Assembly (NCBI GenBank): GCA_965662895.1
Contig: CBFIJH010000006.1
Location: forward strand, 56,924 to 120,923
Length of the DNA stretch: 64,000 nt
Reading direction: 5' to 3'
From: Candidatus Poseidoniaceae archaeon
GTDB lineage: Archaea > Thermoplasmatota > Poseidoniia > Poseidoniales > Poseidoniaceae
Notes under the pieces: generated by a model
Database searches by the model: none
What the model was told of the DNA's origin: nothing
The model's input: the letters and a program-made list of their open reading frames with translations, nothing else
Made by a program: the position numbers and the translations under genes
Part shown: piece after piece, positions 49,567 to 52,383 of the stretch
Layout: each line of letters opens with the position of its first letter
Position numbering within the stretch: the first letter of the stretch is position 1

Positions 49567-51681
49567 CTAAACAATTTGTAGAGTATCATAACCAGTTGGT
49601 CGCATCAGACGACCGTTTTGATTGAGTTTGTCAATAACTTCCTCTGCTTTCTCACGAGAAATATCAAGTCGTTCAGCCTCATTAAGAACGTCAACAAGTT
49701 GTGCAAATCCCTCTCCGTTGGAGGAAAGACGCTCCACAATATCGAGAATGCTGCGCTCAGCGTGTCGGGCTCTTCCCTTCTTATTCGATGCGATAGCTGT
49801 TTCATCAAAGTCCTCACCCATGAGGTCGTATCGCCACGTCTTGGTCAAACGGACGGCTCTCTCCGCATCTTCGATTGTTGCAGTTTCCGACAAACGGATT
49901 CGGGCGCTTGCTTCAGCAAGGCGGGCAAGTGCCTCAAGGGCACGGGCTGTAATGGCAACAGAATCTTGGAATTGACCGGACTGTTTTCTCGTTGTAACAT
50001 AATAATTGATGATGTGTTTCTTCGCTTCTTCATCCAGATTTGGATGGACTGTTCTCTTCGCATAAGCCACATATTTTCGAATGAATTCGCGATGAAGATG
50101 CCCATCGGTATGACTGGGTTTGGTCATGACTGAACTGAGTTTTCTAGGGTCTGGCCTCGAGCCTTCGTTCACCAAAAGTTCACTGGTTCCCGACAATCGG
50201 TTATCAACGATATGGCCGGCGATTTTTGCATCTTTCTCTTCGGAAGGCTGGTCCGTAAGCAACCAGATTACATCAAATCGTGAAACGAGTGGCGGAGCGA
50301 GATTTATTTGCCCTGTAAATGGGACCTCGGAAACGGGTTGGAATCGGCCTGCCTTCGGGTTGGCAGCAGCCAAAACGGCACAACGGGTACGAAGACTTGC
50401 ATTGATTCCCGCCTTTGAAATGGAGATGGTCTGCTGCTCCATGGCCTCGTGCATACTCGATCGATCGGCCTGGTTCATCTTGTCAAATTCATCAATCGCA
50501 GCAAGACCTTGATCGGCTAGAACAAGGGCTCCTGCTTCTAGCGTCCAGCGCCCATCAGCGCTTGCATCCTGCACCGCCGCTGCAGTCAAACCTGCAGCAG
50601 AAGCCGACATACCCGATGTAAATCGGCCACGTGGTGATATGTTCCCCATATAGGCAAGGAGTTGAGATTTAGCAACACCAGGATCACCCATGAGGAGAAT
50701 GTGAATATCGCCACGATTCCTTGTCCCATCCGGGTTGAGGCGGGCCACGCCCCCAAACAATTGCAACATCAACGTTTCCTTGATTTTCTCCATACCAAAG
50801 ATTGAGGGAGCGATGGATTCTGAAATCCGTTGATAAACGTCTTGATTTGCAGCAAACGCCCGAATCTCAGCTTCCTCTTCATCCGAAACAACAATTTCTT
50901 CGAGCGCTAAATTTTGGCGTTCCAAGGATTGAACACGCATGAAAATATCAAACACAGGCGTATCTTTCCCAAACTTACGCTGAGAACGGATGAACAAAAC
51001 ACCGTTCGCTTTGACACGGTCACCCGGATTGACTTTGCCCGTAAGGTCATGTTCTGCGATACAGGAAATTCGTTCCGGCTGGACACCCCCACGAACCTGC
51101 TCAGGCAACTCTTGCAACTCAATGAATTGGGAGTTGGTTAGTGTGGAACGCTCTTGCAGCAATTGGAATCGAGTTTGACGATTGGTAAGGCCACACCCTC
51201 CATCAATTTGCGAACACTCCATCGGATTGATCAATTCCTGCTCATTTGGTTGTTGGATGGTGATCAAATGTTCACACGCAATGCATTTGAATGTGGCAGA
51301 GTACATTCTTGGTCGAACACCTGAAATTTTCGTTACAACCGCATCAATGGAAATCATGAGCCCGATGTCATCCGAGCGTAATTGAGACACGGTTCGAACT
51401 TGATCGCTCGGCAAGTGAACGATTCTTACCCATGGGTTAATGCTTCCATATCCAACATCAGCAAGCAATTCACGAAGAGCCCGATTCGAGGCATCGTTGT
51501 GAAGTTCTGGTTGCTCGAGAATGCTTTGAGCAAAGGTTGGATCAAAACCTTCGATGGTACGATATGAAACTTCAAGGCTTTGAACATCGGGCCAGAGTTG
51601 AGCAATGTTATGAACATCCTCGGTAAAGTGTGCATGCAGGAGTGTTGACCATCGCGCTGTCAAATCAAAATCTTGTATCAT
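49567..51681 (-). CDS. mcm: Minichromosome maintenance replicative helicase
   Basis: Zn finger CIAC...C....GGC; GDPGVAKSQ, GLTAA, EAGALVLAD, IDEFDKM, HEAMEQQ, AAANP and SRFD; C-terminal wHTH; no intein. Confidence 0.97.
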   Translation of the reverse strand: MIQDFDLTARWSTLLHAHFTEDVHNIAQLWPDVQSLEVSYRTIEGFDPTFAQSILEQPELHNDASNRALRELLADVGYGSINPWVRIVHLPSDQVRTVSQLRSDDIGLMISIDAVVTKISGVRPRMYSATFKCIACEHLITIQQPNEQELINPMECSQIDGGCGLTNRQTRFQLLQERSTLTNSQFIELQELPEQVRGGVQPERISCIAEHDLTGKVNPGDRVKANGVLFIRSQRKFGKDTPVFDIFMRVQSLERQNLALEEIVVSDEEEAEIRAFAANQDVYQRISESIAPSIFGMEKIKETLMLQLFGGVARLNPDGTRNRGDIHILLMGDPGVAKSQLLAYMGNISPRGRFTSGMSASAAGLTAAAVQDASADGRWTLEAGALVLADQGLAAIDEFDKMNQADRSSMHEAMEQQTISISKAGINASLRTRCAVLAAANPKAGRFQPVSEVPFTGQINLAPPLVSRFDVIWLLTDQPSEEKDAKIAGHIVDNRLSGTSELLVNEGSRPDPRKLSSVMTKPSHTDGHLHREFIRKYVAYAKRTVHPNLDEEAKKHIINYYVTTRKQSGQFQDSVAITARALEALARLAEASARIRLSETATIEDAERAVRLTKTWRYDLMGEDFDETAIASNKKGRARHAERSILDIVERLSSNGEGFAQLVDVLNEAERLDISREKAEEVIDKLNQNGRLMRPTGYDTLQIV

Positions 51682-51750
51682 GTCAACTCAGCACCAAGGG
51701 ATTCTCCATGGAAGGCCACCGTTCTTAATGGTTCCATTCAAACTTCTCCA

Positions 51751-51770
51751 CCCCTCTATTTCCACTGGAG
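51751..51770 (-). promoter_or_regulatory. ORB-like element (Orc1/Cdc6 origin recognition box)
   Basis: The minus strand reads CTCCAGTGGAAATAGAGGGG, i.e. a TCCAGTGGAAA core plus G-string as in archaeal ORBs. Degenerate copies at 51781-51805 and 51813-51825. Confidence 0.65.
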
Positions 51771-51870
51771 AAAACGTACCACCCATGCTTCTCTTTCCAC
51801 TCGGATGTCAGCGTGAGTGGAAAAGCACCAGCCTCAATAACTTGATATTTAGTCACGAGAACGAGGAATC

Positions 51871-52383
51871 ATGATTATCTTCGCCCATGGAATGGAAGGG
51901 ACGCCAAATGGTGGTAAAATTCGATCACTGAAATCGGCCGGTTTTGAGGTCATAGCGCCTGATTTCCAAGGAATGGCACTTCAAGAGCGTGTCGAAGTAC
52001 TGCAAAACGTGTGCGAAGAGCACCGTAACAAAACACCTCTTCTCGCTGGGTCAAGTTATGGCGGGTTGGCTGCATCAATTGTCGCAATGCGAATGCCTGA
52101 CGCGTTTCGCGGGCTCCTTTTGTGCGCACCAGCGCTTCACCTCAATGAGCCTCCAATCGATGAGCACACCGTCCTCACCATACCTGAGGGATTGAATACT
52201 GCAATCATCCATGGCGTTGGTGATGACATTGTCCCAATTTCATGCAGCATTGAATACGCTGAACGTTCCGATAACGACGTTGTGGTATTTCACCAAGTTG
52301 AGGATGGCCACCGTCTTGCGAATTCACACGATGAAATTATTCACGCCGCACGATTGTTAATTGGCGAGACGATTGGTTCATGA
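51871..52383 (+). CDS. Small alpha/beta hydrolase (YqiA/YcfP-like esterase)
   Basis: FAHG, GSSYGG nucleophile, LLLCAPA, IIHG..DDIVP and DGHRL. Confidence 0.85.
   Translation: MIIFAHGMEGTPNGGKIRSLKSAGFEVIAPDFQGMALQERVEVLQNVCEEHRNKTPLLAGSSYGGLAASIVAMRMPDAFRGLLLCAPALHLNEPPIDEHTVLTIPEGLNTAIIHGVGDDIVPISCSIEYAERSDNDVVVFHQVEDGHRLANSHDEIIHAARLLIGETIGS

Follow-up and report, generated by a model that had tools for sequence, protein, structure and literature searches.

The window, that is, the whole 64-kb stretch of DNA analyzed here, is part of contig C6 of a 1.86 Mb assembly (G000; 92% complete) whose host is a Poseidoniales archaeon (Marine Group II); proteins in the 90% cluster of its Cdc6 carry the names Candidatus Poseidoniales/Poseidoniaceae. 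The 189-bp stretch at 51682-51870 is the gap between the mcm gene for the replicative helicase (49567..51681, minus strand; 704 aa with Pfam MCM, MCM_OB and MCM_lid matches) and a divergently oriented gene for an alpha/beta hydrolase (51871..52383, plus strand; Pfam Hydrolase_4), with purM beyond the latter. This mcm gene is the sole full-length MCM match in the assembly. A weak second match, to the N-terminal part of MCM (22% identity, E 2e-5), was seen at C8:67125-67796 and also in most relatives of the same genus; its product is possibly a stand-alone MCM-N/OB-like protein. The hydrolase gene has a predicted leaderless promoter of its own, with a TATA-like element at 51842-51848. It is no fixed neighbor of mcm: in several genera that keep the ORB described below it was undetected beside mcm, and the match there was purM. 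As had been stated in the initial annotation, the window contains no cdc6; the two orc1/cdc6 genes of this genome are located on contigs C3 and C11. A search against Rfam gave no match, and a scan for sigma-70 promoters and terminators, which is not applicable to archaea, returned nothing.

The main feature of the gap is a full ORB on the minus strand (51750..51769). It is composed of the dyad core TCCAGTGGAAA (51769-51759), of the form TCCA-n-TGGA, followed at the fixed spacing by a G-string (51754-51751), and is almost the same as the consensus published for archaea and for Methanomassiliicoccales (PMC4153887, Table 2). Its G-string points towards mcm, and its start lies 88 bp before the ATG. 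All motifs quoted in the initial annotation were recovered where it had placed them, and its main box proved to be far above chance: a search for TCCASTGGAAA-N5-GGGG with at most one mismatch gave this box as the single match in the 64 kb and no match in 100 shuffles. When scored with a matrix trained solely on 24 ORBs of origin-type pairs, the mcm ORB ranked first in the whole assembly (33.0 bits) and outscored the ORBs of the origin pair itself. Four sites of the assembly reached at least 25 bits, the next one scoring 16.5 bits. G000 and its relatives G039 and G068 each contain only four strong ORBs, which are distributed over the same three loci.

The other copies described around this box fared unevenly. 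The supposed second copy in the same direction (51781..51805, minus strand) is species-specific and lies outside the conserved element: in 23 same-genus loci its mean identity was 0.42, none matched it exactly and none kept its GTGGAAA, and one within-species difference (51791) falls inside it. The inverted repeat in which it takes part, TTTCCACTC/GAGTGGAAA, does exist but, since this copy is not conserved, is particular to this species. The site at 51815..51823, described as an opposite-facing copy, is conserved (TTCCACT in 23 of 23 same-genus loci), but its direction cannot be called because the ORB core is nearly palindromic. It corresponds to an ORB half-site, a mini-ORB core without G-string, that precedes the main ORB by 52 bp, or about five helical turns; over the order as a whole, core scores are highest at -52/-51, and the half-site presumably has a function. 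The weak cores (51731-51743 and 51705-51712) show no conservation as ORBs. The first falls on the predicted BRE region and the second on the predicted -10 element of mcm, and both would be better read as promoter sequence. What had been taken for a multi-copy ORB cluster shrinks to one full ORB and one conserved half-site.

In this genome, leaderless starts are preceded at about 29 bp by an archaeal TATA signal, and a G-rich signal is seen genome-wide at -11 to -8. Upstream of mcm, a predicted TATA box, ATTAAGA (51723..51729, minus strand), starts 40 bp after the ORB start and is exact in 17 of 23 same-genus loci. A genome-derived promoter matrix places the predicted BRE region next to it (51730..51738, minus strand). 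Transcription is predicted to start at about 51700-51703, which would give a short leader of 18-21 nt with a Shine-Dalgarno-like GGTG (51692..51695, minus strand). The G-string of the ORB ends about 12 bp before the predicted BRE, so that a bound protein would flank the core promoter and not cover it.

The position of the ORB is fixed relative to this predicted promoter and not to the gene. Across loci its distance to the start codon varied from -69 to -106. In 18 lineage representatives, TATA scores anchored on the ORB gave a sharp peak at +40 (mean 2.4; next -0.6), and those anchored on the start codon were blurred (best mean -0.9); the matrix used is genome-derived and weak, and for the anchored analysis it was clipped and one of its columns adjusted by hand. 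In one genus with the ORB 105 bp from the start codon, a TATA-like element is still found 40 bp from the ORB. Exceptions, judged by eye, are two lineages shifted by +2 and two in which the spacing is about +31 to +34. In an unconstrained scan the +40 register was the mode, being best in 16 of 51 loci, with 11 more loci 3 bp off and 4 more 2 bp off. The mcm ORB is, then, a conserved site at a fixed position relative to the predicted core promoter, as in a promoter operator. A comparison of four contig runs taken from a single study, which may be the source data, showed six differences at 51791-51859 and none between the ORB and the start codon; this comparison is weak and not independent.

Among relatives, an ORB was found upstream of mcm in 51 of 51 Poseidoniales genomes, which are kin, so that this count does not represent independent events. 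In all of them it had the same orientation and was located 69-106 bp before the start codon, with scores of 16.2-34.2 bits. The 51 loci comprise the mcm 5' region of 40 of 41 genomes (our own included) and 11 more. Left out were L024, L027 and L028, which contain no mcm 5' end (G003 is therefore absent), and L209, which has no anchor and belongs to the 839-aa gene set described below; L037 was re-anchored by hand and has two mismatches. The set spans three families, with MCM identity down to about 42%, and the ORB stays with mcm where the upstream gene changes.

Outside the order the picture is patchier. Of 53 mcm upstream regions (400 bp each) from other Thermoplasmatota, 10 scored better than 100 shuffles (p<0.02): six had strong sense-oriented ORBs (four families), three had strong antisense ones facing away from mcm, and one was weak. 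In many of the negatives mcm is inside an operon, and its promoter therefore lies outside the 400 bp scanned. Two sets of 30 loci from other phyla, one from the phylum of a Methanoperedenaceae record and the other from that of a Nitrosopumilales record, showed no ORB within 1.2 kb of mcm, and neither did two single loci. A collection-wide scan for the ORB pattern returned 41 archaeal loci, in five of which (L265, L296, L334, L277, L323) one or two direct full ORBs lie directly upstream of a TBP-like gene; downstream of that gene, mcm was seen in the covered flank at three of the five loci, and TBP was confirmed for two. Three of these loci are labelled Woesearchaeota and two Methanosarcinales; the latter two records have TBP starts closely resembling the Woesearchaeota ones and may be mislabelled.

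A dyad followed by a G-string at origin spacing is the signature of an Orc1-1-type binder. The Orc1/Cdc6 protein encoded on C3 scores above the TIGR02928 cut-off, and its best PDB matches are 2QBY_A (E 3.6e-93) and 2V1U_A (E 4.6e-92); judged by its sequence, it is an Orc1-1 orthologue with conserved recognition helix and wing. A cognate Orc1-1 orthologue is thus encoded in the genome, and the C11 paralogue shares 26% identity with it. In characterized proteins of this family the AAA+ domain reads the G-string (PMC3936714; PMC9738581), and in Pyrococcus a single full ORB is bound by Cdc6 at high affinity (PMC1904270). As described in the same paper, Pyrococcus Cdc6 binds almost solely the origin region, hence promoter binding is not general. 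For Sulfolobus Orc1/Cdc6 proteins, non-origin ChIP sites and altered transcripts in mutants are mentioned, partly as unpublished (PMC3607249); there Samson et al. (2013) state, citing unpublished data, that these proteins have multiple non-origin sites and probably regulate transcription. The relevant passages of that paper and its supplement 1 do not name the non-origin targets, and supplement 1 contains no ChIP peak list. Orc1-2 is a proven transcription regulator (PMC9738581).

Two further strong ORBs form an outward-facing pair at C2:126337 and C2:126480 (region C2:126319-126498; L206:4320-4499), with the order ORB(-), AT-rich spacer, ORB(+). The spacer of 142 bp is 71% A+T, the genome median being 52% and the 99.9th percentile 68%. 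A beta-CASP nuclease gene and a ferredoxin gene flank the pair, and both cdc6 genes are far away. In 12 of 12 pair loci, picked because a pattern search had shown the pair in them, the spacers were 126-145 bp long and the same two genes flanked the pair; the A+T content was 69-83% in ten loci and 50% and 58% in the remaining two. The pair was also present in five of five further genomes and is conserved throughout the order. An ORB(-)/DUE/ORB(+) arrangement is described as the minimal archaeal origin layout (bioRxiv 10.64898/2026.08.15.744077; PMC6742236).

Strand biases in relatives point to the same place. In G039, a single contig of 1.6 Mb, the minimum of cumulative gene orientation is at 185,864 and the extreme of third-position GC skew at 186,202; when gene orientation is fitted with two switches, the best model has the origin at 186,000, the ORB pair being located at 186,237-186,372. 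A model with the origin forced to mcm fits worse (0.587 vs 0.612), and gene orientation shows no reversal at mcm (307 kb). For G068 the analysis covered the first 390 kb of a 2.06 Mb contig, where the GC-skew peak (203,822) and the gene-orientation minimum (203,799) both fall inside the ORB pair and there is no reversal at the mcm ORB (306 kb), on the two sides of which plus-strand coding is 0.77 and 0.65. The initial annotation had proposed cumulative skew as a check on an mcm-linked origin; in these two single-contig relatives the strand bias switches at the pair and not at mcm, skew being blind to a weak or dormant origin. It should be added that in G068:C1:1-390000 cumulative GC skew is maximal, not minimal, at the pair, so that the leading strand there is C-rich, the reverse of the usual bacterial pattern.

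Other strand statistics were less clear. Whole-sequence GC, AT and RY skews of G039 were noisy, with extremes (428, 716, 343 and 1175 kb) at neither site, and the same skews were noisy in our own contigs, a fragmented assembly being uninformative in this respect. After correction for gene orientation, the GC3 residual of G039 had extremes at 452 and 1311 kb; that of G068 (mean-centred slice) was highest at 198.6 kb and had a shallow dip at 303 kb, near mcm, whose sign is opposite to that of the origin. Around the C2 pair of our own genome the gene-orientation signal is weak and local (0.35 on the left vs 0.47 on the right over 60 kb), with local inversions there. Taken together, the C2 pair is likely the chromosomal origin. 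Synteny with G068 would join the end of C2 to the end of C6; mcm would then be some 98 kb away from the pair and transcribed in the direction of the fork. In G039, G037, G068 and G000, mcm was 98-121 kb from the pair and pointed away from it (measured or inferred; in G000 by synteny).

In comparison with this pair, the mcm site lacks the features of an oriC1-type origin: an inverted ORB pair, an AT-rich DUE, an adjacent orc1/cdc6 gene, which is common but not universal at such origins, and a strand-bias switch. It contains a single full ORB without an inverted full partner. The absence of an AT-rich unwinding element, noted initially, was borne out, the A+T content of the intergenic region (52%) being equal to the genome median of 52%; in none of 50 loci were the 135 bp upstream AT-rich (at least 68% A+T). 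The C2 pair does consist of inverted ORBs, and it too has no adjacent orc1/cdc6 gene. Nor does the motif recur next to cdc6, where the initial annotation had proposed to look for it: no full ORB lies beside either cdc6 gene of the assembly.

The fourth strong ORB (C3:7191-7210; L205:2192-2211) is situated 405 nt inside a conserved gene for an 839-aa protein, about 5 kb from cdc6. The protein matched no Pfam or NCBIfam family and, from a helix-turn-helix read at its N-terminus, is a putative DNA-binding protein. The codons of the ORB are invariant (TCC in 34/34, GGA in 34/34 and GGG in 33/33 sequences), and other conserved G/S/P/A/T/V columns of the gene have a single codon fixed in 31-57% (one in 86%), which indicates selection on the DNA. 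By eye, no TATA-like element was evident 40 bp after this internal ORB. The region C3:6607-6785 (L205:1608-1786) is an AT-rich divergent promoter common to a DUF3860 gene and the 839-aa gene; it contains an ORB core without a G-string and flanking GTAAC/GTTAC repeats in 34 of 34 loci. It could be a regulated promoter or a silent second origin; G039 shows no strand switch there. The conservation of the ORB at this locus means that non-origin ORBs are under selection at more than one place in these genomes.

Of the two readings that the initial annotation left side by side, a compact origin linked to mcm or initiator-mediated control of helicase expression, the conservation of the site and its fixed spacing to the predicted TATA box favor the second; the first is opposed by the lack of an inverted ORB and of an AT-rich spacer and by a better origin candidate elsewhere. 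We consider it likely that the mcm ORB is an operator through which Orc1/Cdc6 regulates transcription of mcm, probably as an activator. The Orc1-1-type protein from C3 would be the likely binder. When bound, it would place its winged helix over the dyad and the initiator-specific motif of its AAA+ part over the G-string, so that the protein would face the BRE and TATA box and leave both uncovered across a gap of about 12 bp; a second molecule may occupy the half-site five turns upstream. The initiator would thereby regulate transcription of the helicase that it loads, either through contact with TFB/TBP or by bending the DNA. Because the whole ORB precedes the core promoter, at a spacing that is fixed and roughly helical, activation is somewhat more likely than repression, by position alone. 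The TATA assignment, the binder, the transcriptional effect and its sign are all predictions.

A more specific version of the operator reading is possible but speculative. It supposes that Orc1-1 is a direct activator touching TFB/TBP from an ORB about four turns above the TATA box, that it controls a small Poseidoniales regulon (mcm and the DUF3860/839-aa pair near cdc6), and that this initiator-to-helicase feed-forward recurs in other Thermoplasmatota and in the tbp-mcm loci of Woesearchaeota. If true, this would be the archaeal counterpart of the DnaA regulon.

Other explanations make a place for the same ORB. The mcm site could be a secondary, dormant or one-directional loading site, at which Orc1 would load an MCM hexamer on the dyad side, towards the half-site. 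The full strength of the ORB agrees with this, as does its geometry, since at known origins the MCM-loading face of Orc1 is the one away from the G-string (PMC6742236), which here looks towards the half-site; dormant origins exist in Haloferax mediterranei (PMC4595724), and loci of the Woesearchaeota type have tandem ORBs in AT-rich DNA before tbp-mcm. Yet no second full ORB stands in inverted orientation, the ORB and the half-site are separated by about 40 bp of DNA that averages 0.56 A+T, the 135 bp upstream are AT-rich in none of the 50 loci, and a haloarchaeal origin is impaired by deletion of either ORB of its pair (PMC3936714). Neither G039 nor G068 shows a reversal of skew or gene orientation at mcm, and such a site leaves the fixed TATA spacing unexplained; we regard it as unlikely. 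That mcm carries the main, compact origin of the chromosome is very improbable. In its favor, no full ORB adjoins cdc6 in the assembly, and some origins are known to have no initiator gene next to them (Ori-Finder-Arch preprint, bioRxiv 10.64898/2026.08.15.744077); however, elsewhere there is a textbook ORB pair enclosing an AT-rich spacer, which is where the strand biases switch, and the G039 model forced to mcm is the poorer one.

The remaining alternatives concern the binder or the effect of binding. A promoter operator read by another protein, e.g., the second Cdc6 paralogue or the putative DNA-binding protein of 839 aa, seems improbable to us: the genome does have a second, divergent orc1/cdc6 gene, and the 839-aa gene contains a full ORB and is preceded by a promoter with an ORB core, but the mcm site keeps dyad and G-string at origin spacing and outscores the origin ORBs. 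It is quite improbable, too, that the site acts as a datA-like sink, titrating the initiator some 100 kb away from the origin and leaving mcm transcription unaffected. This would suit the mcm-to-pair distance of 98-121 kb in four genomes, and ORB-rich titration regions are described in Haloarcula hispanica (PMC3936714); that region, however, has 11 ORBs as against one and a half at mcm, and titration does not need a fixed TATA spacing. A chance or vestigial match without function describes the secondary copies of the initial annotation well; for the main ORB, kept in 51 of 51 loci while the flanking bases diverge, it is contradicted and hardly credible.

The proposed operator resembles several known systems in part. 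DnaA boxes occur in bacterial promoters, in dnaA autoregulation and in the DnaA regulon (PMC3936714; PMC1904270). Similarly, the origin site of the initiator would here be reused for replication genes, although another protein family and another transcription machinery are involved and the target of the proposed regulation is the replicative helicase. With Orc1-2 of Saccharolobus/Sulfolobus islandicus (PMC9738581) it would share an Orc1/Cdc6-family protein acting on promoters; Orc1-2, however, is a non-initiator paralogue that reads a 6-bp DDRE motif, whereas here a full ORB would be read by the initiator orthologue. ORBs of the oriC1 type (Sulfolobus oriC1, Pyrococcus oriC and predicted Methanomassiliicoccales origins; PMC4153887, Table 2) have the same dyad core, spacing and G-string, and an Orc1-1 orthologue is present here too. 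In contrast to those origins, the mcm ORB is single, has no inverted partner, DUE or adjacent cdc6, is locked to a TATA-like element, and is accompanied by a separate complete origin candidate in the same genome.

Conserved or bound ORBs outside the active origin have been described before: a cluster inside dp1 in Thermococcales (PMC1904270), oriC2D in Haloarcula hispanica (PMC3936714) and lone ORBs in Ca. Methanomassiliicoccus intestinalis (PMC4153887). In the parts of these papers cited here, they are clusters beside cdc6 or sites without an assigned role, and none is described at a fixed position in an mcm promoter. Our literature search, confined to papers readable without subscription, found none on an ORB in an mcm promoter or on a Poseidoniales origin. 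The conserved ORB of the mcm promoter represents a new use of a known motif and probably no origin. Much is still open about how archaea time their supply of replication proteins, and the mcm locus offers a precise, order-wide candidate target of Orc1/Cdc6. For annotation, an ORB next to mcm does not by itself mean an origin; conversely, rules that expect an origin next to cdc6 would overlook the likely one of Poseidoniales, which is not coupled to that gene.

Finally, an outward-facing ORB pair of another kind was observed in five loci of Thermoplasmata (L278, L281, L295, L303 and L304). There the two ORBs are about 250 bp apart, and the pair seems to overlap the 5' coding part of a gene that, from its translation, we take to be thiC-like.
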